A model generated the notes under the pieces. It was not told the DNA's origin, did not search any database, and was given only the letters and a program-made list of their open reading frames with translations. From a bacterium (GTDB taxonomy: Bacteria; Patescibacteriota; Microgenomatia; Daviesbacterales; UBA10151): 64,000 nt of DNA. The translations under genes were made by a program, and so were the position numbers. Where the stretch lies: positions 68-64,067 of the forward strand of contig JAJYIE010000003.1 in NCBI GenBank assembly GCA_021790255.1, read 5' to 3'. Positions 1 to 33,709 of the stretch are shown piece after piece; within the stretch, counting starts at the first letter, position 1; each line of letters opens with the position of its first letter.

Positions 1-369
1 TTTGAGTTTGATTATCCGGCTAACTGGGGGCTTTTGACTTGCCAGGGCAATCAAAATATCGAATTTGATCCGGTGAGCAGTACTGATCAGAAGAACGTTG
101 CCTGCAATGAGGCGGTCAAGCCGATCACGGTAATTGTTTCCGATACTTGTCCGGGGCAAACAATTACTTTGGGGAACAATCAGGTAACAAAATCCACAAC
201 CAATATTTCCACCGGCCATGTCGATTATGAGTGGTGTCTTAATGTAGCCGGCAAGGGTTTGGATATCACCCATCGGGTTTCCGTTGCCGGTGCCCCGGCT
301 CACAGTAAACTGGATTATTCCGCTCAGGTGGAACAGATGATTTCCACCATCCGCCCGTCTGCAAAATAA
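1..369 (+). CDS. C-terminal part of a hypothetical (probably secreted) protein; 5' end lies outside the window
   Basis: Open frame runs from base 1 in frame with the ORF 34..369 and stops at 369. No recognisable family. Confidence 0.4.
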   Translation, partial: FEFDYPANWGLLTCQGNQNIEFDPVSSTDQKNVACNEAVKPITVIVSDTCPGQTITLGNNQVTKSTTNISTGHVDYEWCLNVAGKGLDITHRVSVAGAPAHSKLDYSAQVEQMISTIRPSAK

Positions 370-4372: not shown

Positions 4373-5202
4373 AAAGCAAATCCTTTAATAAACTTTTGAA
4401 ATTTTCGCTCCATATATAATTCTGTGTCGTGGTACATATAGCCGAATAATTTCAAAGAAGCTTTATGCCCGCAACTCAAAGTATAATAAGGAGTCTGGTT
4501 ATTTGAGAACCTAGTCTGTATATTACTCGCATAGAGTTCATGTAAAACGCCTGATAGTATGTTATGTATTCCTTGAGCCATATTTAAACTGGCAGTGTAA
4601 AATATTGTAGCAACTGGGCTGCGATATTTATTTGTGTTTCTAAGAAAGACGCAACCATCTCCGTCAAAATAACCCCTTAGAAAGTGACGAACTAGATTAT
4701 TCGGTATTTTGGGGAAATTTAAGGTTAACCTTTTTCTCTCTGAAATACCAAGTTTTAACAAATCATCAAAGACCACGCGATCACAAATTCTTAAACTAAA
4801 GGATATTTTGTTGTTATTTCTGTGGTTCTCATGCACTGGACCGTTATACTCTAAAGTTAATTTAATTTTTTCTATAATATCCCGATCGTCGCATGCGATA
4901 TGTAATATATGGGATCGACCACTATGGCAAATATTGCCGTCGGCTGCAATAAAACCTAAAGTATAAGCCATATTTGCTGACCATTTCTTGAAGAAGTTGG
5001 AGTTGACGGAGTACTTTTTAACTTTTTGCTGAATAGGTAGATATCTTACTCTTGACTGAATAGAAGCCGGAGTACGCCTAATATCTTTTCCCATTTGCTT
5101 GTATGTAAGCTTATGTACATTTGCTTTTAAAAAATTAATCTCTTGGGAAGTCCATGGGTGAGTGAATTGATTTGGCATATAAGTATTATAACAAAGCCGC
5201 AA
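4369..5202 (-). CDS. free-standing LAGLIDADG homing endonuclease (double-motif)
   Basis: Two LAGLIDADG-type motifs (LGFIAADGNI and LRGYFDGDGCV). AT-rich relative to neighbours. Stop overlaps the pcrA start by 4 nt. Confidence 0.8.
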   Translation of the reverse strand: MRLCYNTYMPNQFTHPWTSQEINFLKANVHKLTYKQMGKDIRRTPASIQSRVRYLPIQQKVKKYSVNSNFFKKWSANMAYTLGFIAADGNICHSGRSHILHIACDDRDIIEKIKLTLEYNGPVHENHRNNNKISFSLRICDRVVFDDLLKLGISERKRLTLNFPKIPNNLVRHFLRGYFDGDGCVFLRNTNKYRSPVATIFYTASLNMAQGIHNILSGVLHELYASNIQTRFSNNQTPYYTLSCGHKASLKLFGYMYHDTELYMERKFQKFIKGFAL

Positions 5203-7644: not shown

Positions 7645-8856
7645 ATGGACGATTTAAGGCCGGTTAGACTGCATAAAAAACGATATCCGCAATTCTCATG
7701 GAGCCGCCGCTATCTTTTTTTGCCTATTCTGGTGTTGCTTGGTGCTGTTTACCTTATTTTCGGCCGGCAGGGGGATTCGCCTGTCCTCCGTGTTTTGGGA
7801 GGAGGCAGCAGCCTGAAAATATATGACGGGCGGGTGAATATCCTTCTTTTGGGGATTGCCGGGGGCAACCACGACGGACCAAATTTGACGGACACAATTA
7901 TGGTTGCTTCCTACGATACTCACAGCCATAATGTAACCCTGGTTTCCATTCCCCGTGACCTGTGGCTGAGTGATTACCACGGCAAAGTTAATACTTTGTA
8001 TGAAGATGGCCTGGCAAAAGGTAACGGACTGGGGTTGGCGGAGCAAAAAATCGGCCAGATCTTGGGGATAACCATACCTTACGGGGCGCGGATTGATTTT
8101 GACGGATTCACTAAAGCTGTTGATTTAGTGGGAGGGGTGGATGTAGTAGTACAGCGCTCCTTTGATGATTACGCTTATCCTTTTCCCGGCAAGGAAGCTG
8201 ACATGTGCGGCTATAAGGAAGCAGTGCATGATATTACTGACCAGCAGGCCAGAACATTGGGTGTTGAAAAAGGCAAGCTAAAAGTCTTGCTTGACCCCCA
8301 GGGCAATATTGCCACCGCCGCCGCCACTCCCGACGCGCCCTTAGCATATAACGATGATCAGGTGCTGCAGTATTTTTCCTGCCGCTTCGAGCATTTAACC
8401 TTTAAAGCGGGGCCGCTGCATCTGGACGGAGCAACTGCCTTAAAGTATGTCCGCTCCCGCCACGGCACTAACGGTGAGGGCAGCGACTTTGCCCGCTCCA
8501 GGCGCCAGCAGCAGGTTTTGCAGGCGTTTGAGGCTAAGGTCTTTTCTTTGGGAACTTTAGCTGACCTGCCGAAGGTTATAAGTTTAATCAGGACTTTCGG
8601 TGAAAGCTTGGACACGGATATTCCCCAAAGTGAGTATCCTGATTTTTTGAAACTGGCAAAAGATGTCGGGCCTATTAAAAGCTATGTTATTGACGGTGCT
8701 GGCAGCCCGGAATTTTTAATTAACCCTGATCCGGCAGATTATGGAGGCTCCTGGGTGCTGATTCCACCGAATAACGACTTTACAGCTGTCCACAGTTACA
8801 TTCATGGGATTTTATCACCCGAAACAGCTTCCGGTTCTGCACAGGTTAAGCAATGA
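7645..8856 (+). CDS. LytR-CpsA-Psr (LCP) family cell-envelope phosphotransferase
   Basis: N-terminal TM, then NILLLGIAGGNHDGPNLTDTIMVASYD, the LCP signature. Confidence 0.8.
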   Translation: MDDLRPVRLHKKRYPQFSWSRRYLFLPILVLLGAVYLIFGRQGDSPVLRVLGGGSSLKIYDGRVNILLLGIAGGNHDGPNLTDTIMVASYDTHSHNVTLVSIPRDLWLSDYHGKVNTLYEDGLAKGNGLGLAEQKIGQILGITIPYGARIDFDGFTKAVDLVGGVDVVVQRSFDDYAYPFPGKEADMCGYKEAVHDITDQQARTLGVEKGKLKVLLDPQGNIATAAATPDAPLAYNDDQVLQYFSCRFEHLTFKAGPLHLDGATALKYVRSRHGTNGEGSDFARSRRQQQVLQAFEAKVFSLGTLADLPKVISLIRTFGESLDTDIPQSEYPDFLKLAKDVGPIKSYVIDGAGSPEFLINPDPADYGGSWVLIPPNNDFTAVHSYIHGILSPETASGSAQVKQ

Positions 8857-9380
8857 ACTTAATTTTGCTGGGGGGCAACAGCCTACAAAATAAAACCTGG
8901 ATTAAAGAGGTGGAAATGGTTTTCAAGCCTGATTTTGATTCAACCAGAATTCAATACTATGACCATTGGCAGACCGGTGAAAAGGTTATAGGCTTCGATA
9001 AAGAACTGGAAAAAATGGTTAGCAGTCTGGCCGGGCAAAAAGATTACGTTATTTTTGCTAAGTCCATCGGCACATTTTTAACCTTAAAAGCAGTTCACCG
9101 GAAACTGATTAATCCCAAAAAGTGCATTTTTGTCGGCACGCCGGTTTTATGGAGCCGGGCGCATAATTTCGGGGCGGATGAATGGCTGGAAGGATATAGC
9201 ATTCCCACTTTGTTTGTGCAAAAAACTTTGGATCCGGTGATGCATTTTGCTGATTTAAAAACCCTGCTGGAACAACTGGCGGTAAAAAATTACCGGTTAG
9301 TAGAAATTCCCGGAGAAAGTCATGATTATGAGAGTATTGATCAGCTGAAAGGGCTGACTCTTAAATTCCTTTCCGGATAA
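8853..9380 (+). CDS. alpha/beta-fold serine hydrolase (RBBP9/YdeN-like)
   Basis: About 175 aa with a nucleophile-elbow-like AKSIG. Start overlaps the LCP stop. Confidence 0.5.
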   Translation: MNLILLGGNSLQNKTWIKEVEMVFKPDFDSTRIQYYDHWQTGEKVIGFDKELEKMVSSLAGQKDYVIFAKSIGTFLTLKAVHRKLINPKKCIFVGTPVLWSRAHNFGADEWLEGYSIPTLFVQKTLDPVMHFADLKTLLEQLAVKNYRLVEIPGESHDYESIDQLKGLTLKFLSG

Positions 9381-19427: not shown

Positions 19428-20153
19428 ATGAACTTAAGCGACCGGCAAAGGCAGCTTCTAAAAGCCATCATTGAACTCTACGTTAAAACCGGTGAACCGG
19501 TTTCCTCTGAGCTGATTGAAAAAAGCTACAATCTAGGAGTATCTCCCGCTACTATCCGCAACGAAATGGTCCGCTTAACTGATGCCCAGTTTTTAAAGCA
19601 GCCTCATACCAGCGCCGGCCGGGTACCGACAGCCATGGGCTTTCGTGTGTATATTTCCGAGCTGATGCAGGAAAAAGAGCTGCCGGTGGTGGATGAGGTA
19701 GCTATACGCCAGCAGCTTCTGGATGCCCGCAACCAATATTCCCGCCTGGTTCAGGCAGCTACAAGAGCTTTGGCCAAAAAGTGCGGCATGCTGGCAGTAG
19801 CCATGAGAGATGGGGATATTTACTATACAGGCGCCGCCAATATTTTGGATCTGCCGGAGTTTTATGATATTGATGTAACCCGTTTTGTGCTGTCAATGTT
19901 TGATGAGGCAACTATTCTTGAGCAGCTGATTGACAAGGCTCAAGGGCCTGGTTCGCTGCACATCATTTTTGGTGAAGAAACAGGTTTTGAATATCTGCGC
20001 CCGACCAGTTTCGCTTTTGTTAACTTCCCGACCAATGAAAGTCAACAGGGAGTGATCGGGGTAATCGGCCCCAACAGGTTAAACTTCCCGGTGGTTTTTC
20101 CGTATCTTCGCTATGTCGGGGAGATCTTGGCGGAAGCAGAGAGGATAGTATAG
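19428..20153 (+). CDS. hrcA: heat-inducible transcription repressor HrcA (short form)
   Basis: N-terminal winged-helix RQRQLLKAIIELYVKTGEPVSSELI. First gene of the hrcA-grpE-dnaK operon. Confidence 0.8.
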   Translation: MNLSDRQRQLLKAIIELYVKTGEPVSSELIEKSYNLGVSPATIRNEMVRLTDAQFLKQPHTSAGRVPTAMGFRVYISELMQEKELPVVDEVAIRQQLLDARNQYSRLVQAATRALAKKCGMLAVAMRDGDIYYTGAANILDLPEFYDIDVTRFVLSMFDEATILEQLIDKAQGPGSLHIIFGEETGFEYLRPTSFAFVNFPTNESQQGVIGVIGPNRLNFPVVFPYLRYVGEILAEAERIV

Positions 20154-20157
20154 GATT

Positions 20158-20661
20158 ATGGCTGATAAAGACGAAGTTGGCCAGCTGAAGGAGCAGATGG
20201 GGTCACTGGAAGACCAGCTGAAACGGGCGGTGGCCGACTACCGCAATTTGGAAAAGCGGATCGCTGAGGATAACCAGGCAGCCGGCGATTTTGTCAAAGG
20301 GCGGCTGGTGGGTAGGATTTTGCCAGTACTGGATTCTCTGGACCAGGCTGTAGAGGGGGCTAGCCAGTCGGAGACACAATCCTCCTGGCTTAAAGGAGTG
20401 CTGATGTCAGTCAAACAGCTACGTCAGGTTCTTTCCGATGAGGGGCTTGCGGAAATTGAAGTTGGGGATAAGTTTGACCCAAATTTGCAGGAGGCAGTTG
20501 ACGTAAGGGAGGGAGAAGATGATAAAATTTTAGAAGTGGTCCAGCAGGGTTACTTGTTGGGAGGCCGGGTACTCCGGCCGGCTAAAGTGGTGGTAGGCAA
20601 GGGCCAGCCGGTGCAGATGTCGGAAGAAGCAAGGGAAAAAGTCGAAACGGAGGAGGCATAA
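20158..20661 (+). CDS. grpE: nucleotide exchange factor GrpE
   Basis: Coiled-coil N-terminus and GrpE C-terminal domain. Confidence 0.9.
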   Translation: MADKDEVGQLKEQMGSLEDQLKRAVADYRNLEKRIAEDNQAAGDFVKGRLVGRILPVLDSLDQAVEGASQSETQSSWLKGVLMSVKQLRQVLSDEGLAEIEVGDKFDPNLQEAVDVREGEDDKILEVVQQGYLLGGRVLRPAKVVVGKGQPVQMSEEAREKVETEEA

Positions 20662-20712
20662 AGAGGCATAGCTGACATGGAGTAGACCATTCGTCGCTAC
20701 GCTCCTCAGGAT

Positions 20713-20747
20713 GACAAGCAAATTTAGGGAATTGTAATTTGCTTGTC
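20713..20747 (+). promoter_or_regulatory. perfect 12-bp inverted repeat GACAAGCAAATT-N11-AATTTGCTTGTC in the grpE-dnaK spacer
   Basis: Seen directly. Ends 13 nt before the likely dnaK ATG at 20761. Distinct from CIRCE. Confidence 0.35.
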
Positions 20748-22719
20748 AAATGAACAAAGTATGGCAAAGATTGTTGGAATTGATCTTGGTACTACAAATA
20801 GTGTGGTGGCGGTCATGGAGGCTGGTAAGCCGAAAGTCATCCACTCTGCTGAGGGGGAAAATGTTATTCCCTCAGTGGTTAACCCGGTTAAAAATATCGT
20901 TGGCCGGGTAGCCAAACGGCAGGCAGTGGTTAACCCTAAAGAAACTATTTTCTCCATCAAGAGGTTGATGGGCCGCAAATTTACCGATCCTGAGGTGCAA
21001 AGAGATATTAAGTGGCTCCCCTATACTATTAAAGAAGGTAAAAATGGTATGGCAGTGGTAGAAGTCGAGGGTCACGAATACACCCCGCAGGAAATCTCGG
21101 CAATGATTTTGCAGAAAATGAAGACCGATGCCGAGTCTTACCTTGGTGAAAAGGTGACCGACGCGGTGATCACAGTCCCTGCTTACTTTGACGATGCCCA
21201 AAGGCAGGCTACCAAGCAGGCCGGGGAAATTGCCGGGTTAAACGTGCAGCGGATCATAAATGAGCCAACGGCTGCGGCATTGGCTTACGGGTTGGATAAA
21301 GCCAAGGCAGAAACAATTGCCGTTTATGATTTGGGCGGCGGCACTTTTGATATTTCTATTTTGGAGCTCGGTGAGGGCGTTTTTGAGGTCAAATCTACTA
21401 ACGGAGATACACACCTTGGCGGGGATGATTTTGACCAGCTGATTATTGACTGGCTGGTGGAGGAGTTTAAAAAGGAGCAGGGAATTGATCTTAAAACTGA
21501 CCGTCAAGCACTGCAGCGCCTGCGGGATGGGGCGGAAAAGGCCAAGATTGAACTTTCGTCCTCTATGGAAGCAGATATTTCCCTTCCGTTTATCACTGCG
21601 GACCAATCCGGCCCCAAACACCTGGAGATAAAACTGTCCCGGGCTAAGCTGGAATCCCTAGTGAGTGAACTAATTGAGAAAACATTTACTGCTGTGAAAT
21701 CTGCCTTAAAGGACGCAGGCAAAGAGGCCAAGGATATTGACGAGGTAGTGCTGGTAGGTGGTATGACCCGCATGCCGGCAGTACAAAAAGCGGTCCAGGA
21801 TTTCTTCGGTAAAGAACCACACAAAGGGATTAACCCGGATGAGGTGGTGGCAATCGGGGCGGCCATCCAGGCAGGAGTTTTGGGCGGCGAGGTCAAAGAT
21901 ATCCTGCTTTTGGATGTTACTCCCCTGACTCTGGGTATTGAAACCATGGGTGGAGTAAGGACGCCGCTTATTACCCGCAACACCACCATACCAACCTCTA
22001 AGGCAGAGATCTTCTCTACCGCTGCTGATAACCAGACTCAGGTTGAGGTCAATGTACTGCAGGGCGAGCGGGAGATGGCTGCCGACAACAAGTCTTTGGG
22101 CAGGTTCATCTTGGACGGCATTCCGCCGGCGCCGCGGGGTGTGCCGCAGATTGAGGTGACCTTTGATATTGATGCCAGTGGCATTTTGAATGTTTCTGCC
22201 AAGGATAAAGCTACGGGTAAAGAGCAGAAAATTACCATTACCGGCTCCACCGGATTGTCAAAAGAAGAGGCGGAAAGGCTGGCTAAGGAAGCCCAGGCTC
22301 ATGCTGAAGAAGATAGGCAGAAGAAAGAGGAAATTGAAACAAAGAATCAGGCTGACTCCTTGATCTACACTACCGAGCGCTCAATTAAAGACGCCGGAGA
22401 TAAAATGCCGGCGGGAACTAAGGCTGCTCTGGAAAATAAGATTAAAGAATTACGGGAGGCGGTTTCCTCAGGTAGCAAGGACGAGATTAAGAGCAAATCA
22501 GAGAGCCTGTCTGACGCCTTGTCCAAATTCGGTTCTTCGATGTACGGTCAGCAAACTCAGGCTACTTCTCAGGAGCCGCCGATCAACCCGAATGAGGAGA
22601 TCCAACAGGAGGAGAAGGAGGGCCAGCCAGCCGATTCCGCAAACGAGGCTGTTGAGGGTGAGGTGGTGGAAGACAATCCGGGGAGTACCCAAGGCGAGGA
22701 CCAAGATGGAAGAAAATAA
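20743..22719 (+). CDS. dnaK: chaperone DnaK (Hsp70)
   Basis: [22 protein letters not shown] and full Hsp70 similarity. The ORF-track start 20743 is a TTG; the ATG at 20761 ([10 protein letters not shown]) is the more likely start. Confidence 0.95.
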
Positions 22720-22972
22720 GGGAGAAATGCTCAAACGAGCAGAAGAGATATTTTCCAGATTTCGCCAAACTGCTTCGAAGCAAACTATGGAAATGTATCA
22801 CCGGGGAACATTGTCTAAAGCGGATGGAGAGTTCGTGGCAAAAACACAGGATAGTGGGGATAAGCCAACTATTAGGGTTGAAGGGACTGGCGGCGAACCG
22901 GTGTTAATTTATCCGCGGACGAATACTCCTTGGGAAGAGATAGTAGGAACAAGACAAAGCCGAAAAAGATAA
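22706..22972 (+). CDS. hypothetical 88-aa protein overlapping the dnaK stop
   Basis: ATG at 22706 lies 14 nt before the dnaK stop (the track ORF 22592 starts inside dnaK). No family recognised. Confidence 0.25.
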
Positions 22973-23000
22973 CGGCATTATTGCAGGACCTGAATAAGTC

Positions 23001-23026
23001 GGCCTCGGGAGACCGGGGCCTTTTTT
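23001..23026 (+). terminator. putative Rho-independent terminator (GGCCTCGGGAGACCGGGGCC + T6)
   Basis: GC-rich hairpin followed by TTTTTT, downstream of the dnaK/small-ORF unit. Confidence 0.5.
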
Positions 23027-23032
23027 AAGACA

Positions 23033-23590
23033 ATGGCAAATTTGGTGATAAAAGACAAGGTTGTGGGTGTAGAAATTAAGCTGGTTACCAGAGCCGGGGT
23101 GTTTTCCAAACAGGGGATTGATAGTGGCAGCAGGCTGCTCATGGAAAAGATGCAAGTAACTGATGGGACAATGGTGGCAGATCTCGGGGCAGGAGCCGGC
23201 CTGGTGGGGATTGTGGCGGCAAAACTAAACCCGCACGGCCACATCCACTTTTTGGAAGATCATCTGCGCTCATATGAAACAGCCCGGGAAAATGTTGAGC
23301 TGAATGGTTTGAAAAACGCTGAGGTTTTCTTAAGTGATCTGTTCAGCGCAGTGCCGCAGCGCAGTTACCATCTGATTATTTCCAACCCTCCCCAGCATCT
23401 GGGCAATGAATTCTTAGAAGAGGCAGCCGGAGAGTGCCTGAAACACTTAAAACCCGGCGGGCAGGTGTATTGGGTAATGCAGAGTCATCTGGAGTCATTT
23501 ACTCAAACGCTATTTAAAAAAGTCTTCGGAGGCTATAAAATTATGGCGCACGGAAAGGAGCATGTAGTGGTGTCAGCGTATGGGAAGTAG
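23033..23590 (+). CDS. class I SAM methyltransferase, RsmC C-terminal-domain-like (rRNA m2G MTase small domain)
   Basis: [18 protein letters not shown], the SAM-binding motif [10 protein letters not shown], and IISNPPQH (NPPxH). Confidence 0.7.
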
Positions 23591-23637
23591 CATATAGGGA
23601 GAGTCATCTTCCATTACCAAACCTCTACTCTAAAAAC

Positions 23638-24537
23638 ATGGCAACTAAACGAGACTATTACGAGGTGTTGGGCGTAAATAAGAATGCTTCTGAGGCGGAG
23701 ATTAAGTCTGCTTACCGTAAACTGGCCCGCCAGCATCATCCTGACATAGACAAAAGCTCGGGAGCAGCTGAAAAATTTAAGGAGATCTCCGAGGCTTATC
23801 AGGTGCTGTCCAACCCAGAAAAACGCAAAGCTTACGACCAGTTCGGCCACACTCCTTTTGAACCGGGTGCAGGCTATGGTGCTGGCGGCAGCCCATTTGG
23901 CGGTTTCCGGACTTACACCTATAGCGGCGGCGGCCCCCAGGTCGATTTCAACTTCGGTGGCTTTACTGACCCCTTTGACCTTTTTGAACAGATTTTCGGC
24001 ATGGGCGGAGAGCCGTTTGGCGGTTTCGGAGCGGCGTATCAGAGGCGGCCGACCTATCAAATGGAATTAAGTTTTGAGGAAGCAGCTTTTGGCACGACGA
24101 AGGAGGTTGAAATGGCTGACAGTCAGGGTAAAAGGAGGCGGATGTCTATCAAAATTCCAGCCGGGGTGGACAACGGCACAAGGATGCGTTTTGAGGGAGT
24201 GGATATCGTTTTCCGGGTCCGCCGCCATTTCCACTTTGTTCGTGAGGGGGCAAATGTCTTTTCGGATGCGATTTTGACTATCCCGCAGGTTGTGCTGGGG
24301 GATGTAATTGAGGTGCAAACCATGCATGGAACTGTTAAATTAAAAATTCCTGCCGGCACCGAACCGGGTTCCCTGATCCGCATTAAGGGTAAAGGTGTGC
24401 CGTACCTTCGCAGCAGTCAGGTTGGGGATCACTACGTCCGGGTGAAGCTGGAAATTCCCAAGAGAATTTCGGGTCGGGAAAAGGAACTTTATGAGCAGCT
24501 GGCCGGAGAAAAATCCAAGAAAAAGGGCTGGTTTTAA
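23638..24537 (+). CDS. dnaJ: J-domain co-chaperone, class B (DnaJ/CbpA-like, no CxxCxGxG zinc finger)
   Basis: J domain with HPD (DYYEVLGV...HHPD), Gly/Phe-rich linker, C-terminal substrate-binding domains. No zinc-finger repeats. Confidence 0.8.
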
Positions 24538-24917
24538 TAATCTGCCAGATTATCAGTTAATCTGAGCAGCTTTCCTGAAACCTGAGGGTAATATCTTTCA
24601 TTAGGAAGGCAAGCAACTTGGTTGGGAAACTGGAAAACCCATTTCTCCAATTTTTCATCAAAGACTGCTTCAAATGTTTGTCCGTTAAGGTGCGTAAGAC
24701 GGGTCAACCTTACCCATTGCGGATGTCCGGTTGCGCCTTGCCACTCTTTTGGGACGGCAACAATCTCTTTCACATTAAGACCTTCATTCCCGTAATGGGA
24801 ATATTCCTGCTGGTCAGCAAAACGAACAGTATCGCCTTCTTTAAATTCCATAGCGTGCGCTATTATAAGGAATTTGCTCCATCCGGTCAAATAAATTGAT
24901 TTCTTTAGTTTTAACAC
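24534..24917 (-). CDS. hypothetical protein
   Basis: ORF only. A downstream alternative start at MEFKEGD is possible. Confidence 0.35.
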
Positions 24918-24918
24918 T

Positions 24919-25480
24919 ATGCTGACTGCTATGACCGAAGAATTTAAAGCTGATTATTATGGGGCAGATCAACAGCAGTTTGTTAATCGGAATTAGCGGT
25001 TTTTGTTCATTCTGATGAAGCAATACTGGTAAACAGCGGTTCCTCAGCTGGCCGGCCCTCAATAGTGGCCCGGATGGTTGAAGCACTGTCCCGAAGCGGC
25101 CGGGAGAAAGTGTTGGATGTTGGCATGGCCTTAGGCTATCAGGCAGTAATATTGTCCGGCTGTAGTCGATGGGCTTACACCATAAAATATGATGCTGGGC
25201 TGGCGGCTGAAGCTACCAGGCGACTTGCTGGTTACCAGAATGTGACAGTCAAAGTGAGTGACGGTGCCCTTGCTGGCTGGAAGAAGCGCCGCTTGAACGA
25301 ATTATTTTAATAGCCAGGGTGCGGGATTTTCCGCAAAAGGCTATTGAAAAAGGTTTAGCAGAAGGAGAGTACTTTGCACATCTTGCCCAAAAAATGGGGA
25401 TAACTCCGGATTTGACACAAGCCCATGCCCTGCGGAGGCTGATAGTGCCGGATGAGATTTTGCGGGATGTAGGTATTTAA
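24919..25480 (+). pseudogene. pcm: protein-L-isoaspartate O-methyltransferase (pcm) pseudogene with at least 2 frameshifts and a degenerate SAM motif
   Basis: Three frames together reconstruct PCMT. First frame: MLTAMTEEFKADYYG... Second frame: ...SIVARMVEAL...KVLDVGMALGYQAVIL...DGALAGW. Third frame: APLERIILIA... Confidence 0.55.
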
Positions 25481-25579
25481 AACAAGGGATCTGATCAGAT
25501 CCTCGGTCGCAAGGTCGTGTGAGTGTACATCTTAATTCTTCGGCAGGCCAATTTAAAAAAAGAAGACTTTGAATAATAA

Positions 25580-26167
25580 TTACGCGTCAGGAGTAAATGC
25601 CAGGGCAACTGTTTGGTATCTGATCTCATGTAATTTCCACGGGCTGCGCACCCTGTTTCCCATCAAGTATTTAGCATCGTAAATTTTTAGAAGAGGCGAT
25701 CTTAGATTCGTTCGGTTACTTTCGACTTTGGCATTACAGGCTATGCCGATAAATCTTAAAGAAGCAGCGAGTGGCGGATGGTTTTTGGTAAGAGCTTTAA
25801 TGAGATTTATATCTGAAACATCAACGCTTTCTTTGGGAAAGACTTCAACTCTGTAGCCGGGTTCTTCGATTTTGCCGGAAGGATGAATTTTGCCAATTAG
25901 GTTGATGTTAGCCGTTTGCCCGTCTGCCTCTGCTTGTCCAAAAGCTGCCATGATATCGGGAGTGGGAGTGTATATTTTAGTAATTGTCCGGGCACTGCCA
26001 ACACCTAAAAAAAGAGGGCCTCCCTGGGTTAGAAGCTCTTTGTAGACTAAATTGCGTAGGGTTTTGGCGGCTTCCGAACTTACCATAACCTCGGGTGGTG
26101 AAGTCCTTTCTCCGAAATGCCAGTTAGCAAATCTCTCCGGTATAAATCTGCCGAAATCAGGTAACAT
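25580..26167 (-). CDS. hypothetical protein (195 aa)
   Basis: ORF with sensible codon usage. No family recognised. Confidence 0.5.
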   Translation of the reverse strand: MLPDFGRFIPERFANWHFGERTSPPEVMVSSEAAKTLRNLVYKELLTQGGPLFLGVGSARTITKIYTPTPDIMAAFGQAEADGQTANINLIGKIHPSGKIEEPGYRVEVFPKESVDVSDINLIKALTKNHPPLAASLRFIGIACNAKVESNRTNLRSPLLKIYDAKYLMGNRVRSPWKLHEIRYQTVALAFTPDA

Positions 26168-26254
26168 AAATATTCCCTTTCAGGACGATAATATACTACA
26201 AGTTTAGTTGAATGCCAACCGGACATTGAGTTAATGTTAATTTTCTTCAGGAAG

Positions 26255-27001
26255 CTACTTTTTTAGAAGTTGTTTTATCCCGGTCATGATTTCGGTGGGG
26301 ACAGTGAAGACGATAGTATTGCCTGTGTTGGCAGCAGCAGCTTCAATGGTTTGCAAAGTACGCAGGGAAATAGCACCGGAGGAGGCCATCATCTCCATGG
26401 CGGCCTTGAGGTTTTCCGAAGCGGTTTTTTCACCTTCTGCCCGGATAATGGTGGCCCGTTTCTCACGCTCAGCTTCCGCCTGTTTGGCCATCACCCGCTT
26501 CATGTCATCAGGCAGCTCCATGTCCTGCATCTTGATGGCGGTCACATCAACTCCCCACTCGTCAGTTTCCTTATCCACCAGCCGCTTGATTTGTTCGGCC
26601 AGCTTTTCCCGCTCAGTCAAAAGCGTGTCCAGGTCGACACCGCCGATGACATCCCGCAGGGCAGTTTGGGCGTACTGAGTGATGGCATAGGCATAATCCT
26701 GAATCTTTAAGACGGCATCCTCTGATTTGGTGACTCTGAAATAAACTACAGCATTGATACCTGCCGGAACATTGTCTTTGGTAATAACTTCCTGTTTTGG
26801 GATGTCCTGGGTTTGGATACGCATATCCACCCTGATCATCCGCTGGAAAATGGGGACAATGATTTTTAAACCCGGACCAACTGTATAAGAATAAGCACCC
26901 AGTGTTAAAACTACCCCACGCTCGTATTGGTTAATAATTTTTATGCCTGATAAAACAAGCAAAATCAGCAGGGCAAAAAGTATCCAGAAGAGCATTCCCA
27001 T
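26255..27001 (-). CDS. SPFH/band-7 (stomatin/prohibitin-like) membrane protein
   Basis: N-terminal TM plus an SPFH domain (QDIPKQEVITKDNVPAGINAVVYFRV...) and a coiled-coil C-terminus. Confidence 0.85.
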   Translation of the reverse strand: MGMLFWILFALLILLVLSGIKIINQYERGVVLTLGAYSYTVGPGLKIIVPIFQRMIRVDMRIQTQDIPKQEVITKDNVPAGINAVVYFRVTKSEDAVLKIQDYAYAITQYAQTALRDVIGGVDLDTLLTEREKLAEQIKRLVDKETDEWGVDVTAIKMQDMELPDDMKRVMAKQAEAEREKRATIIRAEGEKTASENLKAAMEMMASSGAISLRTLQTIEAAAANTGNTIVFTVPTEIMTGIKQLLKK

Positions 27002-27059
27002 AAGACCATACTAGCACTTTTTTATTGCGGCGAAAATGATTTATATTGCTACTGCTTTG

Positions 27060-27803
27060 TCAGTAAGTGTTCCACTTCTGGGCAATCGGAGCAGGTGTAG
27101 GATGTGACCGGACTTGTGTTTGTGGTCCCGTGAAGCGGTGCCCGGTTGTCAAAAGGATCCCGGCAATAATGAGAGCTATTTTAATATTTTGGTGATTTAA
27201 AGAAATATAAAAGCTTGGGTAATCATCTGACAGGCCAAAGAAATAAGCCATGGCTGCTTGGGTGACCCGGACGCTGTCCCGGATAAACTCAAATGTGGCT
27301 TCCGGGAAATCTCCGATAGATAAAACATTGTAGAAGGAGATAATATAGCCTAGGGCTGCTCCTACCGCGATCACCTCAACAAACACCAAGTAGGGAATAA
27401 GCAAAAGCAGACGGATAAGACCGCCTGCTAAAGGCACGGCAAAGAGCTTACTGGGGTGAGATGGGGTTTGCATATTAAACGAATAACTATCATCAATTTG
27501 GAAGTTGAAATAGGGGTATTTATCGGTCAAGCCGTAAAAATAGAGCCTCGTTTTAACTATTAGCCTCATCAGGCCAAGGTTATAACGGTAGCCAAACTGC
27601 CAATACTTGTCGGTGAAAAGAACGACAAAGGAACCGATCAGAAGGACAAAGACTAAACCAATGTAAAGAAAAATTAATTCCAGGTATACAGGAATGAGCA
27701 GAATAATTTTGGCTAAAAATCCGATTAGAGGAAAAGCATAAAATTTATTGGGGTTTTTGATATTCACGATTTCCAGCGCTGGGTAAAGGTTGCCTTTTTC
27801 CAT
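27060..27803 (-). CDS. polytopic membrane protein with tandem DUF4389-like repeats
   Basis: Two repeats each containing the FYGLTDKYP(Y/S)F motif flanked by TM helices. AT-rich. Confidence 0.5.
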   Translation of the reverse strand: MEKGNLYPALEIVNIKNPNKFYAFPLIGFLAKIILLIPVYLELIFLYIGLVFVLLIGSFVVLFTDKYWQFGYRYNLGLMRLIVKTRLYFYGLTDKYPYFNFQIDDSYSFNMQTPSHPSKLFAVPLAGGLIRLLLLIPYLVFVEVIAVGAALGYIISFYNVLSIGDFPEATFEFIRDSVRVTQAAMAYFFGLSDDYPSFYISLNHQNIKIALIIAGILLTTGHRFTGPQTQVRSHPTPAPIAQKWNTY

Positions 27804-27869
27804 ATCTTTTTGTACCTATGTCTACAATACGATATCTTGCCTCACCAGTCAATGAACTACCATACGGTT

Positions 27870-28433
27870 TTAAGGCCAAGGTTGGCCATCCAACAGGATT
27901 TTTTTCAAAGCAGCATTACCCTCTGTATCCACAGAAACTACCGCCATAGCTTTTTTGTCGCGCAGGTTGAGATTTTGCCCTTTCCCCTGCGGGATAAAGT
28001 AATTTTCTGTCCCGTATACTATCTGCAGTGTCGGATTGGTGGAATAATAATTAGCCGGCCAGCCGGAGCTTTCCGGCGCACCGGAGACAACTTTTCCCTT
28101 CAGAAAAATCGTATTATCCCCCTCGGGTTTTTTTGTCTGGACACTTTTTGCCGACCAGTACCCGCCGTCTTCTTTTAGGATTACATACACCGTTTCACCG
28201 TTTTTTGTGTTGATAACCCCTAAGGTATATGGGCTGATAGCTGAAAGGTCGGTATAACGGAAAGCAAGATAGTCTCCCCGAAGGGGGCTTGTGGGATCAA
28301 CAGGTTCGATCCTTAAAGTAATCTCTGTGCCCCCGGTTAAAATAACCACTTTAAGTAAAATAATGGTCAAAATTACTGCAACCTGGAAGGCGACTGCCAA
28401 AACAAACTTGTTAAATTTGCTGAGGTTTTTCAT
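27870..28433 (-). CDS. GDYXXLXY-domain membrane-anchored protein
   Basis: N-terminal TM, then GDYLAFRY. The three ORFs 27870..30283 (minus strand) overlap start-to-stop with no intergenic gaps. Confidence 0.5.
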   Translation of the reverse strand: MKNLSKFNKFVLAVAFQVAVILTIILLKVVILTGGTEITLRIEPVDPTSPLRGDYLAFRYTDLSAISPYTLGVINTKNGETVYVILKEDGGYWSAKSVQTKKPEGDNTIFLKGKVVSGAPESSGWPANYYSTNPTLQIVYGTENYFIPQGKGQNLNLRDKKAMAVVSVDTEGNAALKKILLDGQPWP

Positions 28434-29530
28434 GTCTGCGCTGCTGGTTGTTCTCCTTTCAGATTAGCCAAGACCAAGCGCCGACCATTCTCCATTGCGT
28501 ACCCAACCCCGAACATTAAAATTCCTGCCCCGATGAAGAAAAAACCTTTATCCATAAAGGAAAACATCCAGTCAACGTATTTAACCACGATGAACACGAA
28601 CAGCATTGTAGTACTCAGATTGACCAGCCATTCCTCCCGGCGCTTATATCCCAGCAAAATCAGGCCCAAAATTTCCAGGAATATTGTTACATTGAAAATG
28701 ATTGCCCATGAAATGCCGGTTAGCGACAAATTTTCAGAGGAAGAGAAAAGGTTACCTCCACTCAGTGAGATTATTTGTTTGGGCAGCAGAACTAAAGCGG
28801 TAAATAGTATGGCCAGAAGCGAAACAGCTCCGGCTTCAGGCCAGGTGATTAATCTTCTGGCTGACGAGTATGATACTGAGGCTGCTAGGGCAACTGCGAG
28901 TATCAGCAGGGACAAGGTGGCTTGCCAGGAAACCCAGACCGGTGCCCCGCCTGTCAGATCTTCAAGCCTTCCCAGACCGATTTTGGCGGACAGGAAAAAC
29001 AATAGCCCGCTTACGAAAATAATTCCTAGGATTAAATAAACAAGGGCAAACCGGCGGGATTTTTCCATCCTTTCCTGGGCCCTGCCCCAAACGTAAAAAA
29101 ACAGGCTGAAAAAGACAAAACCGGCCATAATGCTCACGGTTTTAAAATTTTGACTGAATGCCCAGGAGAACATCTGGCTTATCCACCACCCCAAAAACCC
29201 CAGCAGGCTTATTATTAGTACTAAAACCGCCTTGAAATAATAGGCTCCGGCAAACCCGGCCAAGGAAGTCAGCAGGACGATTGTTTGCCAGTTTAAGGGG
29301 GAACTAAAGTCCCGGTTCAGAGACTGGATTGTCAGACCCAGAAAAGAGACAGCCAGAAGCAAAAACAGCTGACTGAGAGAATCCTCTCTGGATAAAAAGA
29401 CCTGGAAATACCAATTATTGTCTTTGGCTGGATCCGTTGAGCTATGCCGTCTTTTTAAGATGAACCAGATTAAGGCCGGGATTCCCAGAGGAGGAAAGAC
29501 TATGGCTAAAAGGATGTAGATAAAAATCAT
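28430..29530 (-). CDS. polytopic membrane protein (DUF4401-like)
   Basis: About 10 predicted TM helices. Sits between the DUF2157-like and GDYXXLXY genes; that pairing is the known co-occurrence pattern for these domains. Confidence 0.45.
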   Translation of the reverse strand: MIFIYILLAIVFPPLGIPALIWFILKRRHSSTDPAKDNNWYFQVFLSREDSLSQLFLLLAVSFLGLTIQSLNRDFSSPLNWQTIVLLTSLAGFAGAYYFKAVLVLIISLLGFLGWWISQMFSWAFSQNFKTVSIMAGFVFFSLFFYVWGRAQERMEKSRRFALVYLILGIIFVSGLLFFLSAKIGLGRLEDLTGGAPVWVSWQATLSLLILAVALAASVSYSSARRLITWPEAGAVSLLAILFTALVLLPKQIISLSGGNLFSSSENLSLTGISWAIIFNVTIFLEILGLILLGYKRREEWLVNLSTTMLFVFIVVKYVDWMFSFMDKGFFFIGAGILMFGVGYAMENGRRLVLANLKGEQPAAQT

Positions 29531-29533
29531 TTA

Positions 29534-30283
29534 TTAGTAATACTCCTTTAAATTGTCCGGCATCCTGCGGCGCATAAAATAACTTACAAACAGCACAACT
29601 GCGGTAGCGGCTGCCAGCAGCAGTGATGAGGTGAAAATGGTTGAGCTGTAAATAACGGTTCCGAAAAGCACCCAGGGCTGGCTGGCCGCGGCTATAAATC
29701 CCACAATAACTGCCAGATAAAACAGCGGATACAAATCCAGAGCGAACCCTAACGCAAGTGCTCCGAGCATCCAGAGAATAAACCCGTCCGGCCAGTTTCT
29801 ATGGATGTTAAAAATCTGCCCGACTAAAAAAATTCCGGCCCCGTAAATAATTGCACCCAGAAGCGTCAGCGCTTCCCCGGTTTTCTGGAAGCCATACCGC
29901 TCTTCCATCTGCCAACCGGCAGCATAAGAGGCGACCATAGACAGGAGGATTATTGACACCTTCAAATCTTTAGTCATGTCTGCCCAGTTGGAGGCAACCA
30001 GCGAGAACACTCCGGCGCCGATCAGGATTGCCCCTGCGCTCAGGATAATCCGGACTGTTTTTTTCTGGGTATCGGCCTTTTCATGTTCGGCAGTGAGGGT
30101 AGCAAAACCGGCCTGGATCTGGTCAATGGTGGCGCTTTGCGCAAGAAGGCGGCGGTAAATTTCTTCCATAGGCTGTCCCGCTGCAAGGGAAGATTTTACC
30201 AATTCGGTAACAGCCTGGTTGTCCATAAGCGTGACAAAGTATGATCTCTTCTTAATTGATGCATCAATCCGGGGGAATGTCAA
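29534..30283 (-). CDS. membrane protein (DUF2157-like): soluble N-terminal region plus 5-6 TM helices
   Basis: About 80 soluble residues, then multiple TM helices. First gene of the three-gene unit. Confidence 0.5.
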   Translation of the reverse strand: MTFPRIDASIKKRSYFVTLMDNQAVTELVKSSLAAGQPMEEIYRRLLAQSATIDQIQAGFATLTAEHEKADTQKKTVRIILSAGAILIGAGVFSLVASNWADMTKDLKVSIILLSMVASYAAGWQMEERYGFQKTGEALTLLGAIIYGAGIFLVGQIFNIHRNWPDGFILWMLGALALGFALDLYPLFYLAVIVGFIAAASQPWVLFGTVIYSSTIFTSSLLLAAATAVVLFVSYFMRRRMPDNLKEYY

Positions 30284-30390
30284 GTTAAGCCGCCGGGCAG
30301 GGTTGACTTAAAATTGGTAAAAGGATAAAATGGGGCTGTCAGTCAGAAAGGACGTGTCAAGGTGGGACAAGCCCACCTTTATTTTTATTT

Positions 30391-31824
30391 ATGCCAATCC
30401 AAGCTAGAACTGAATTTGCAGCTGCTTTAAACCAGTTAGCCTCTGAAAAAGGAGTTGATGTTAATATTGTTATTGAAGCGATCCAGCAGGCTGCCCTGGC
30501 AGCATACCGCAAAGACTTATCCCTACGTGGTGAAGAAATTCCAGAAGATTTTGACTCGCTGACCGCGGAGATCGATCCGGTAACGGGTGAAATTTCTATA
30601 TTGCGCGGCAAGGATAATATCACTCCTCCGGGGTTTGCCCGCATTGCCGCCCAAACCGCCAAACAGGTAATCATGCAGCGGCTGCATGAGGCGGAAAAAA
30701 GCGCTGTTATAGAAGAATACGAGCAGAAAGTGGGCACAATCATCTCCGGCACAGTGCAGCGGCAGGAAGGCAGTATGTACTTTGTTGATTTAGGTCGGGC
30801 CGAAGGAGTTTTCCCTGTTCCTGAACAAACCCGCGATGAGTACTATCATTCCGGTCAGCGCCTGAAGTTTTATATCAAGGAACTTCGGGAGGGGCGGCGA
30901 GGCTTGGAAGTAGTAGTTTCCCGTTCAGATGCAAACCTGGTCAAGGGTCTGTTTGCGCTGGAGGTACCGGAAATCCAGGCAGGAACAGTAGTTATTAAGG
31001 AAATTGCCCGTGAGGCTGGTAGTAGGACTAAAGTGGCAGCTATATCTACTCAGGAAGGTGTTGACCCTGTGGGCTCACTGGTAGGCCAGAAAGGTGTCCG
31101 TGTTCAGGCAGTGATGAATGAACTGGGGGAGGAGAGGATTGACATTATTGCTTACTCAGAGGATCCGGCTCGTTTTATTGCTGCATCGCTCTCTCCTGCC
31201 AAAGAGGTGCAGGTTACCTTAAGCAAAGATGGGGAAGAGAAGGTAGCTAAAGTAAAAGTGCCCACGTCCCAGCTCTCCCTGGCTATCGGCCGCGGAGGCC
31301 AGAATGTCCGCCTTGCGGCAAGACTTTCCGGCTGGAAGATTGACATTGAGGGCACCGGCGAAGCAAAGGAAGACACTACGGCAGCGCCAACCCCCGCTCC
31401 TGTCAGCGGTGAAGAAAAGGCCGGAGAGGCCCGAAAGGCGGTTGTGGAAAAAGTTGAGGAGGAGATTGATAAGGCAGCGGCTGAGGAGTCAGCAAACGGC
31501 GCTGCTCCCCAGGAGCCGGTGGAAGAGGAAGGTGAAGCGGTATCCAGGGCTGAAAATGATATGCTGGCTGAAGAAAAAAGTATTGAGGCTGAGGATAAAA
31601 AAGGCCCCGAAGGAGATTTGGTGGCAACGGAGGAACCAGATGAGGTAGAAGCTCCCACAGTGGCCAACACCGCCGATACTCCCGATGTCAGCGCCAAAGA
31701 AAAACCCTTTCCTGCGGGTGGACCGGATGAGCCTGATGAAAAAAGATTGACTGAGGATAGCGCTAAAGAACTGCCTCCGAGCGAAGGTGACACCGATCAG
31801 GCAAAGGCTAAAATGAAAAGCTAA
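30391..31824 (+). CDS. nusA: transcription termination/antitermination factor NusA with acidic C-terminal tail
   Basis: N-terminal domain, S1 domain, and two KH domains (GRGGQNVRLAARLSGW), followed by an E/A-rich tail. Confidence 0.9.
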   Translation: MPIQARTEFAAALNQLASEKGVDVNIVIEAIQQAALAAYRKDLSLRGEEIPEDFDSLTAEIDPVTGEISILRGKDNITPPGFARIAAQTAKQVIMQRLHEAEKSAVIEEYEQKVGTIISGTVQRQEGSMYFVDLGRAEGVFPVPEQTRDEYYHSGQRLKFYIKELREGRRGLEVVVSRSDANLVKGLFALEVPEIQAGTVVIKEIAREAGSRTKVAAISTQEGVDPVGSLVGQKGVRVQAVMNELGEERIDIIAYSEDPARFIAASLSPAKEVQVTLSKDGEEKVAKVKVPTSQLSLAIGRGGQNVRLAARLSGWKIDIEGTGEAKEDTTAAPTPAPVSGEEKAGEARKAVVEKVEEEIDKAAAEESANGAAPQEPVEEEGEAVSRAENDMLAEEKSIEAEDKKGPEGDLVATEEPDEVEAPTVANTADTPDVSAKEKPFPAGGPDEPDEKRLTEDSAKELPPSEGDTDQAKAKMKS

Positions 31825-31911
31825 AATGGACAAAGTTTAACTTTTCGCAGGTAACAACAGAAGGAGCCAGCCGCCTGATCTTATCGGAAAAGGCGGTTTT
31901 TTGACGGTTAA

Positions 31912-32259
31912 ATGGAAATAATCGAAAAAGAGTGGAATAAATTAGTCAGAGATAACGTCTGTGCGAGCTTAGAAGGTAATGGTGCTGTAGTGGAAATGAG
32001 AGTGGTAAGGGATAAAAAAGAGCTGGATTGTCTTTTAAGGGGGAAACTGGTTGAGGAATCAAGGGAAGTGGAGTCAGCGCAAAGCATTGATGAAGTGGTT
32101 GAAAAACTAGCAGATTTGGAAACTGTGAAGCAGGCCTTAATGAGGCTGCATGGTATAAGTCAGGGCAGGTTAACTCGGGCACGCATAAAGAAAGATAAGC
32201 TGAAAGGAACGTTTGGGAAAGGACATTTTCTGATCTCAACAAAAGAAAGAAATGGCTGA
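31912..32259 (+). CDS. MazG-like / phosphoribosyl-ATP pyrophosphohydrolase-like nucleotide pyrophosphohydrolase (tentative)
   Basis: KLVRDN...EE...E all-alpha NTP-PPase-like pattern. Sits between nusA and infB, where small accessory genes usually occur. Confidence 0.4.
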   Translation: MEIIEKEWNKLVRDNVCASLEGNGAVVEMRVVRDKKELDCLLRGKLVEESREVESAQSIDEVVEKLADLETVKQALMRLHGISQGRLTRARIKKDKLKGTFGKGHFLISTKERNG

Positions 32260-33709
32260 AACAGTAAGACCACCGGTAGTAACCATTTTAGGCCATGTTG
32301 ACCATGGGAAAACTACCCTGCTTGATTTTATCCGTAAAACTTCTGTTGCTGCCAAAGAACACGGCGGAATTACCCAGGCCATAGGTGCTTATCAGGTGGA
32401 AGTGGATGGTAAAAAAATAACTTTCATTGACACCCCCGGCCACGCTGCTTTTGAAAAGATGAGGTCCCGGGGAGCGGAAGTGGCGGACATTGCTGTTTTG
32501 GTAGTAGCAGCTGATGACGGGGTAATGCCACAAACCGTTGAGGCAATCAAACACATCCAGCGGGCACGAATTCCCATGATTATTGCAATAAATAAGATTG
32601 ATCTGCAGGGGATAAATGTCAAGGTGCAAATAGATAAGATTAAACGCCAGCTATCCGATCAAAAAGTTTTAGTGGAAGAATATGGCGGCGATGTGCCCAT
32701 TGTCTCGGTCAGCGCCAAGACCGGGGATGGGGTAAAAGACCTTTTGGAAACAATTGGCCTTGTGGCGGAGATAAATGAGTTGAAAGGCGACTTGGACAGA
32801 GCAGCCCAGGGGGTTATTATTGAATCAAATTTGGATAAATCACGGGGTCCGGTGGCGACAGTGTTAGTGCGGGATGGAACACTAAGAAAAGGTGACACTT
32901 TTACAGTAGCCGGGATTGCCTGTAAAGTGCGGGGGATGTTTGACTGGGCCGGCAAAAATGTAGATACAGCCGGACCCTCGGTGCCTGTGGAGGTCTTAGG
33001 TTTCCAAAGCGTGCCGCTTGTGGGTGCCAAACTAGGCGAGGAAAAAGCTGCCGCCGTAGCAAGCCCGGAAAAAGATCTGGGCGGTTTGATCGCCAAGCTA
33101 CGGGGAGAAGAAGGCCAGCTTTTAAATGTGATTATCCGGGCTGACAAACAGGGGTCGCTGGAAGCAATTGAAGAGGCAGTAGGTAAATTTAACGCCGAGG
33201 AGCAGCATATTAAAGTTATTCTGGCCGGAACGGGTGAGGTTATTGATTCGGATGTGGAGCTCGCCGCGGCTACCAGGGGAATTATTTTGGGCTTTAATGT
33301 GCCGGTGAAATCCTCTGCCCAAAGGATTGCCGACACTGAACATGTACTGATTCGGACTTATCGGATTATATATGAACTGACACAGGAGTTGGAGGATGTG
33401 GTGGAAGGGATGCTTAAACCCGGAGTGGTAGAGGAGGTTTTCGGGCGGGCACAAGTAGTGGCGGAGTTTCCTTTTGGTAAGAGCGAGCGGATTGCCGGCT
33501 GCAAGGTTTTGGATGGAACAATCTCCAAAGGCCCGAAAATCAGGCTGGTGCGGACGGATGAGGTAGTCGGAGAAACCAAAATCAAATCCCTGAAAAGATT
33601 AAAAGAAGAGGTGTCCAAGGTGGAAAAAGGCCAGGAATGCGGGATGATTTTTGATGACCAGTCAATCTTTCAAATCGGCGACACAGTGGAATCGTTCAGG
33701 ACGTACTAA
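32252..33709 (+). CDS. infB: translation initiation factor IF-2 (short form lacking long N-terminal region)
   Basis: [18 protein letters not shown]-domain, [12 protein letters not shown], and IF-2 C-terminal domains. Confidence 0.95.

Follow-up and report, generated by a model that had tools for sequence, protein, structure and literature searches.

Do five adjacent genes for membrane proteins form a single functional module, or have separate units come to lie side by side? The question is raised by a block at positions 26255-30283 (minus strand) of a 64,000-nt stretch of DNA, hereafter the window, within which all coordinates are numbered. The window comes from a genome of the Patescibacteria, or candidate phyla radiation (CPR). 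The block comprises a triad of genes of the DUF2157, DUF4401-like and GDYXXLXY (GDY) families, followed by genes encoding a DUF4389 protein and a stomatin-type SPFH protein. A first-pass annotation had proposed that all five belong to one coherent membrane module. The comparison of loci presented here points elsewhere: the block probably consists of two separable units, the triad and the DUF4389-stomatin pair, juxtaposed in a variable slot between hrcA-grpE-dnaK-dnaJ and nusA-infB. These flanking genes are part of the set of housekeeping genes recognised in the window, along with pnp, rpoB and rpoC, and homologues of the block proteins were retrieved from Parcubacteria, Patescibacteria and similar sources.

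The five minus-strand open reading frames (ORFs) were all present where they had been placed, and identical gene calls are found on the public version of the contig. Triad gene 1 (probably 29534..30226, 230 aa, within a maximal ORF extending to a TTG at 30283) encodes a DUF2157-family membrane protein. The product of the maximal ORF (29534-30283) matched PF09925 with an E-value of 8.5e-33 (113.5 bits against a cut-off of 32.4), a match also found in 25/25 aligned homologues, and the protein is made of a soluble N-terminal domain of ~55 aa followed by ~6 transmembrane (TM) helices. Triad gene 3 (27870..28433) encodes a GDYXXLXY protein that is anchored by an N-terminal TM helix and carries an all-beta domain, and matched PF14345 (E 5.8e-30; 104.5 bits, cut-off 27). 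The GDYLAFRY peptide reported for this protein was found within RGDYLAFRY at residues 52-60, and the motifs PVDPxxPLRGDY and YGxExYFIPEG were invariant. The next gene (27060..27803) encodes a tandem DUF4389 membrane protein that matched PF14333 in two stretches (E 9.3e-10; 38.7 bits, cut-off 25). Its two halves aligned with each other (29% identity over 84 aa, E 2e-5), bearing out the internal tandem repeat that had been claimed; the architecture is that of two repeats, each made of a two-helix TM hairpin and a following helix, and 66 homologues were found. The last gene (26255..27001) encodes a prokaryotic stomatin, the proposed SPFH/band-7 protein, with a Band_7 match at E 2e-43 (148.9 bits). 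The block is divergent from nusA (30391-31824, plus strand), as previously described.

Pfam thus matched the proposed families for DUF2157, GDYXXLXY, DUF4389 and Band_7, and the DUF4401 assignment remained below threshold. Triad gene 2 (28430..29530, minus strand) encodes a 366-aa polytopic membrane protein with 11 TM helices, which had no Pfam match even at E ≤ 1. Its homologues (n = 62, all from CPR or metagenomes) gave matches to PF14351 in 17/25 cases, at 19-25 bits against a cut-off of 30.4, and these matches spanned only profile positions ~250-306 of 307, corresponding to the last ~57 positions and the C-terminal two helices. Formally, the middle protein is not a member of DUF4401 (PF14351). 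The label "DUF4401-like" is nonetheless fair, and the protein passes a looser test based on its place beside DUF2157 and GDYXXLXY, on fusion and on a C-terminal KYxDW...GAG motif; the C-terminal residues are invariant among the homologues. One of these homologues, P0033 (592 aa), has a C-terminal half duplicated internally, with two copies of KYFDW...GAG. The possibility that DUF4401 arose as an internal duplication of DUF2157 was also considered: MAFFT aligned DUF2157 onto the DUF4401 region, but hhalign returned a probability of 1.3% and the idea was rejected.

The triad is conserved far beyond this genome. A scan with the GDY profile using one genome per GTDB species yielded 80 loci with 1.18 Mb of flanking DNA (~10 kb reach), which came from CPR phyla, Proteobacteria, Verrucomicrobiota, Acidobacteria, Coriobacteriia and others. 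These loci were searched with hidden Markov models built here, and upstream counts were restricted to the 67 loci where 2.5 kb or more of upstream DNA was available. A DUF2157 plus DUF4401-like region was found directly upstream of GDY in 64/67 loci, split into two ORFs in 50 and contained in a single ORF in 14. The remaining three loci had a long DUF2157 protein upstream, so that DUF2157 is directly upstream of GDY in 67/67. The view that the first three genes match a triad of unknown function is therefore well founded. All four contigs found via DUF4401-like homologues carried DUF2157, a DUF4401-like gene and a third gene in a housekeeping context that was different each time, and locus L121 likewise carries the triad. 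A natural DUF2157+DUF4401 fusion protein (P0021) was also identified, and natural fusions support the physical association of the triad proteins. Across the 80 loci, clustering of all flanking ORFs revealed no fourth conserved partner, no other neighbour being present in more than 9/80. P-type ATPase, ABC, pilin-like, KdpD-like and H+-PPase genes were examined as candidate partners and discarded, each being found in at most 9/80 loci and at scattered distances. On a larger scale, the GDY profile retrieved 5,529 representatives at E ≤ 1e-3 among 1.84 billion (clustering at 50% identity).

Triads of this kind are already catalogued in Pfam and RefSeq as families of unknown function, and the five-gene block is a lineage-specific juxtaposition. 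The known DUF2157/DUF4401/GDYXXLXY operons resemble the one described here in gene order, GDY motifs and the DUF2157 domain. An example is found on a plasmid of Deinococcus sp. QL22 (M1R55_RS17405, RS17400), which RefSeq records in a two-gene form with a start/stop overlap before the GDY gene, as in the window. By contrast with these operons, the CPR middle protein belongs to a divergent clade that has only the last two helices in common with PF14351 and scores below its cut-off, and in many non-CPR phyla the first two triad genes are one ORF or the DUF2157 protein is shorter. None of the known operons has a member with a known function, and a literature search on the three triad family names returned few mentions, none addressing function. 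The only experimental trace of GDYXXLXY comes from Fusobacterium nucleatum, where the GDYXXLXY protein cross-links to FtsX/EnvC, as does an SPFH protein encoded by an unlinked gene (PMC5915739), and where the GDYXXLXY transcript is mildly induced in co-culture (PMC9848294).

The gene-neighbourhood check did not bear out the co-localisation of all five genes. An SPFH gene was found near the triad in only 1/80 loci (L021, where a stomatin gene lies 440 nt downstream of GDY), and DUF4389 was found near the triad in 0/80, even at E ≤ 10. When metagenome loci were anchored on stomatins 52-77% identical to that of the window, 0/23 contained DUF4389 or the triad. Six DUF4389 homologues were examined for context: a stomatin gene follows in L011 and L123, and is absent in L008, L012, L013 and L124. 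The first-pass annotation had itself named a failure of the five genes to co-localise in other genomes as a ground for giving up the module, and this is largely what was found.

Related lineages carry the parts of the block separately, which argues against one coherent module. In L123 (NusA 86%, stomatin 89% and DUF4389 54% identical to those of the window), the order is nusA (-), DUF4389-stomatin (+) and dnaJ (-), without the triad. L124 (NusA 75% identical) has DUF4389 alone in the slot, in the order nusA, DUF4389, dnaJ-dnaK, and L098 has stomatin alone beside nusA, in the order nusA, stomatin, OMPdecase-like gene. In L012 the order is dnaJ, DUF4389, yidD, an unknown gene, nusA and infB. The nearest relative, L011, is represented by a contig ending inside the GDY gene; compared with the window, the C-terminus of its GDY protein is 85% identical and its DUF4389 protein 68%, and its stomatin is 96.5% identical over a 231-aa tblastn match or 92.7% over the full MAFFT alignment.

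A backbone of hrcA-grpE-dnaK-(methyltransferase)-dnaJ ... nusA-(115-aa ORF)-infB, corresponding to positions 19428-33709 of the window, is common to L012 and L124. Across these three loci only the content of the dnaJ-nusA interval varies, which marks this interval as a hotspot for gene gain and loss. On the preferred explanation, the slot in this clade was ancestrally occupied by the DUF4389-stomatin pair. According to the simplest reading, the triad, which is found in unrelated places elsewhere, would have entered the dnaJ-nusA slot in the lineage of the window and L011, with DUF4389 and stomatin as long-standing residents.

The junctions between the genes fit this division. The three triad genes had been described as overlapping start to stop. 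This is the case for the DUF4401-like and GDY genes, which share an ATGA (28430-28433), but the DUF2157 and DUF4401-like genes are 3 nt apart (TAA TAA ATG), with an AAGGAG located 12 nt 5' of the ATG. The 3-nt gap and the ATGA overlap indicate translational coupling within the triad. For the DUF2157 gene, the probable start is the ATG at 30226 (230 aa) rather than the TTG at 30283 (249 aa), since the homologue consensus begins at the former and the latter lies within a promoter-like site (TTGACA-17-ATCAAT).

Longer spacers separate the remaining genes, with 66 nt between GDY and DUF4389 (27804..27869, minus strand) and 58 nt between DUF4389 and stomatin. A promoter scan identified a promoter-like site, TTGACT-17-TATTGT, at 27852-27824 in the 66-nt spacer. 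This spacer is 92% identical in L011 with both hexamers kept, compared with only 68% for the DUF4389 protein, and is thus the better conserved of the two. The 58-nt spacer contains a TGCTAGTAT motif resembling an extended -10, which is conserved in L011. The DUF4389-stomatin pair therefore probably has its own promoter or promoters, and the presence of promoter-like sites in both spacers is a further point against a single five-gene module.

What the triad might do was approached through structure and topology. The AlphaFold2 model of the middle protein (predicted local distance difference test, pLDDT, 87.5) contained 11 long helices, and that of the GDY protein (pLDDT 81) one TM helix and an all-beta domain. 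Foldseek searches of the PDB with these two models gave no fold match (E > 0.05), with TM-scores of ~0.1-0.2 when normalised to the query and at most ~0.3 when normalised to short targets. Profile searches of PDB sequences with the GDY, DUF4401-like, DUF2157 and DUF4389 profiles returned nothing significant; the best profile match, to the galectin congerin, had an E-value of only 0.14 and was treated as noise.

Positive-inside counts of lysine plus arginine suggest an N-in/C-in topology for DUF2157 (14.8 versus 1.6, across 25 homologues) and an N-out/C-in topology for the DUF4401-like protein (15.5 versus 5.4, over the family alignment). The most conserved loops, NWPDG in DUF2157 and KYxDW...DKS...GAG in the middle protein, are predicted to face outward, and the all-beta domain of the GDY protein is predicted to be extracytoplasmic. 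In one CPR lineage (L005), the third triad position is occupied by a 291-aa Laminin_G_3 protein (8085-8960, plus strand), with no GDY gene anywhere in the locus, and some GDY members carry C-terminal SdrD_B or CARDB surface-type domains. Both the Laminin_G_3 swap and the SdrD_B/CARDB fusions fit an exposed position of the third subunit.

Most likely, the DUF2157/DUF4401-like/GDYXXLXY operon would encode one integral-membrane complex. Its membrane core would be formed by the 6-TM and 11-TM subunits with their conserved loops outward, and the bitopic third subunit would hold the all-beta GDY domain on the outer face. Such a complex may bind or handle an extracytoplasmic envelope or surface ligand, coupled to the membrane core, and could work in the manner of a transporter or serve as a receptor or anchor. 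The data show the family assignments, the conservation and separability of the two units, the coupling of the triad genes and the lack of solved structural relatives, whereas topology, complex formation and ligand handling are inferred; our confidence in a three-subunit complex handling such a ligand is low. Tentatively, the triad could be an undescribed three-subunit envelope machine, whose outward GDY domain would bind a cell-envelope or host-surface ligand and which would not be a diverged member of any characterised class of transporter, sensor or enzyme. It would be kept in minimal CPR genomes and, in this lineage, might perhaps be under common control with the stomatin pair; we see this as a possibility to be entertained and not as an expectation.

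The second unit is made of the tandem DUF4389 protein and the stomatin. The latter has a TM helix at the N-terminus, ahead of the SPFH domain and a coiled coil, and is clearly of the stomatin type, with matches to the PH1511 stomatin (3bk6, E 8e-50), human stomatin (3.5e-50) and QmcA (1.4e-34). It scored far below the NCBIfam equivalog cut-offs for HflK and HflC (74.8 bits versus 159.4, and 46.7 versus 134.4). The SPFH domain and this weak NCBIfam similarity are what it has in common with the FtsH-modulating HflK/HflC pair, from which the locus differs in having a single SPFH gene and no adjacent ftsH. By family-level analogy, the stomatin should form ring or cage oligomers like those solved for stomatin, QmcA and HflK/C, and would in this way build an SPFH oligomeric cap over a patch of membrane.

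Among close relatives of this stomatin (L096-L109; for example L102, 6783-7448, minus strand), the gene is nearly always followed by a convergent gene of ~220 aa belonging to the OMPdecase/HUMPS family (Pfam E 2e-17). This neighbour does not adjoin the stomatin gene in the window.

As a rule, stomatin operons also contain NfeD. The PH1511/PH1510 (NfeD protease) and E. coli QmcA/YbbJ systems have the same kind of SPFH protein, beginning with a TM helix and ending in a coiled coil; here, unlike in these operons, a DUF4389 gene lies upstream of stomatin and no adjacent NfeD was found. The earlier remark that no NfeD partner was seen agrees with our scan of the flanking ORFs, which gave no NfeD match at E ≤ 0.1. 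No NfeD gene was noticed by eye in the whole-window ORF map, which was not scanned against the NfeD family, and none was recognised among the neighbours in 11 related stomatin loci.

These observations raise the possibility that DUF4389 is a dedicated stomatin partner standing in for the missing NfeD, which would make the second unit a two-gene stomatin system. DUF4389 lies directly upstream of stomatin in the window, in L011 (DUF4389 68% identical) and in L123 (54% identical), and NfeD is lacking beside the stomatin here and in the 11 inspected loci. However, the three lineages represent a single stomatin clade (89-93% identity) and maybe a single evolutionary event; DUF4389 is found in 0/23 of the other stomatin loci (52-77% identity), and 4/6 of the DUF4389-anchored lineages lack stomatin. 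In addition, the DUF4389 protein has neither an OB-fold domain nor an NfeD match, and both genes may merely share the dnaJ-nusA slot. We therefore consider a substitution for NfeD unlikely, and retain a weaker two-gene association between DUF4389 and stomatin in three related lineages (the window, L011 and L123).

Several observations weigh against two juxtaposed units and against the function suggested for the first of them. The locus L021 is a distant second lineage with the triad followed by a stomatin gene, and the GDY-DUF4389-stomatin order is kept in L011, although only in this nearest relative. The scan of the block revealed no convincing terminator between the five genes; together with their common orientation and short spacers, this makes read-through co-transcription possible. 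The mechanism suggested for the triad draws solely on topology rules, fusions and domain swaps, and the PDB searches provided no fold or sequence link from the triad to any characterised protein. The P0021 fusion joins the C-in DUF2157 to the N-out DUF4401-like protein via a hydrophilic linker only, which is hard to square with the predicted topologies.

The points concerning gene arrangement are those expected if all five genes formed one membrane-stress or envelope-remodelling system, in which the stomatin would act as a scaffold gathering the triad and DUF4389 in a microdomain. Such a system would account for the shared strand and short spacers, for the order preserved in L011 and for the triad-stomatin arrangement in L021, and the F. 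nucleatum SPFH and GDYXXLXY proteins are both among the 16 proteins cross-linked to FtsX and EnvC (PMC5915739). The same evidence reads differently when set against the wider comparison. SPFH is missing from 79/80 triad loci and DUF4389 from 80/80, 23/23 stomatin loci have neither DUF4389 nor the triad, and the close relative L123 has the DUF4389-stomatin pair without the triad. The L021 stomatin is 54.6% identical to that of the window, and many relatives at 70-75% identity without this arrangement lie between the two on the tree. Furthermore, one SPFH gene per 1.18 Mb is about the background assumed if genomes of ~1 Mb each contain a single SPFH gene. In Fusobacterium the two genes (locus tags 1662 and 1251) are unlinked, and pull-downs after cross-linking are biased towards abundant membrane proteins. 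Promoter-like sites in the spacers also speak against such a system. The suggested link to membrane stress found no support either: no PspA, Lia or Toastrack genes recurred as neighbours in the triad loci, and none of the five proteins matched the PADLOC defence-protein models at E ≤ 0.01, which leaves a role in anti-phage defence unsupported as well. A five-gene system is therefore very unlikely, and two separable units sharing a variable slot remain the preferred reading.

The least probable proposal, a link to Lia/Psp envelope stress through DUF2157, starts from a comparative-genomics paper that equates the N-terminal TM region of LiaF with DUF2157 and does not mention GDYXXLXY or DUF4401 (PMC11237479), and can be set aside given that 0/25 DUF2157 members match any Lia-type Pfam family at E ≤ 1, that LiaI-LiaF-TM, PspA, PspC and Toastrack Pfam domains are found neither in the five proteins nor in the 25 DUF2157 members, and that the 80 loci show no recurrent PspA, Toastrack, PspC or two-component genes around the triad.

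The outcome is mainly corrective, in that the block gives no ground for looking for a stomatin-organised "membrane-stress module" elsewhere. The triad stands out as a clean, self-contained known unknown that is retained in reduced CPR genomes. Since it also occurs in culturable Bradyrhizobium, Deinococcus, Paenibacillus and Fusobacterium, its function is experimentally testable.

Two further ORFs encoding soluble proteins lie downstream of stomatin on the same strand, one of 195 aa (25580-26167, minus strand) and one of 127 aa (24534-24917, minus strand). Neither had a significant family match or a homologue in any fetched locus, L011 included. The 195-aa ORF has its own promoter-like site, TTGGCA-17-TATATT, at 26218-26190.

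On the other side of the block, a leader preceding nusA is conserved in five CPR lineages. It was located at 30303-30390 (plus strand) in the window, and at 236-365 (minus) in L098, 7711-7815 (plus) in L012, 547-660 (minus) in L123 and 4841-4935 (minus) in L124. In the leader, a TTGACT-17-TAAAAT promoter-like site is followed by a GGTGGG-loop-CCCACC hairpin and then by a run of T residues, which ends 12-35 nt upstream of the nusA ATG. Lineages differ in the sequence of the loop, and in L124 a compensatory substitution has turned the A-T pair at the stem base into C-G. The window contains no other instance of this exact stem, with 0.01 matches expected by chance, and the leader had no match in Rfam. 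NusA autoregulation has been described in other bacteria. Because no upstream plus-strand gene would need termination at this position, the element looks like an attenuator, possibly serving NusA autoregulation.

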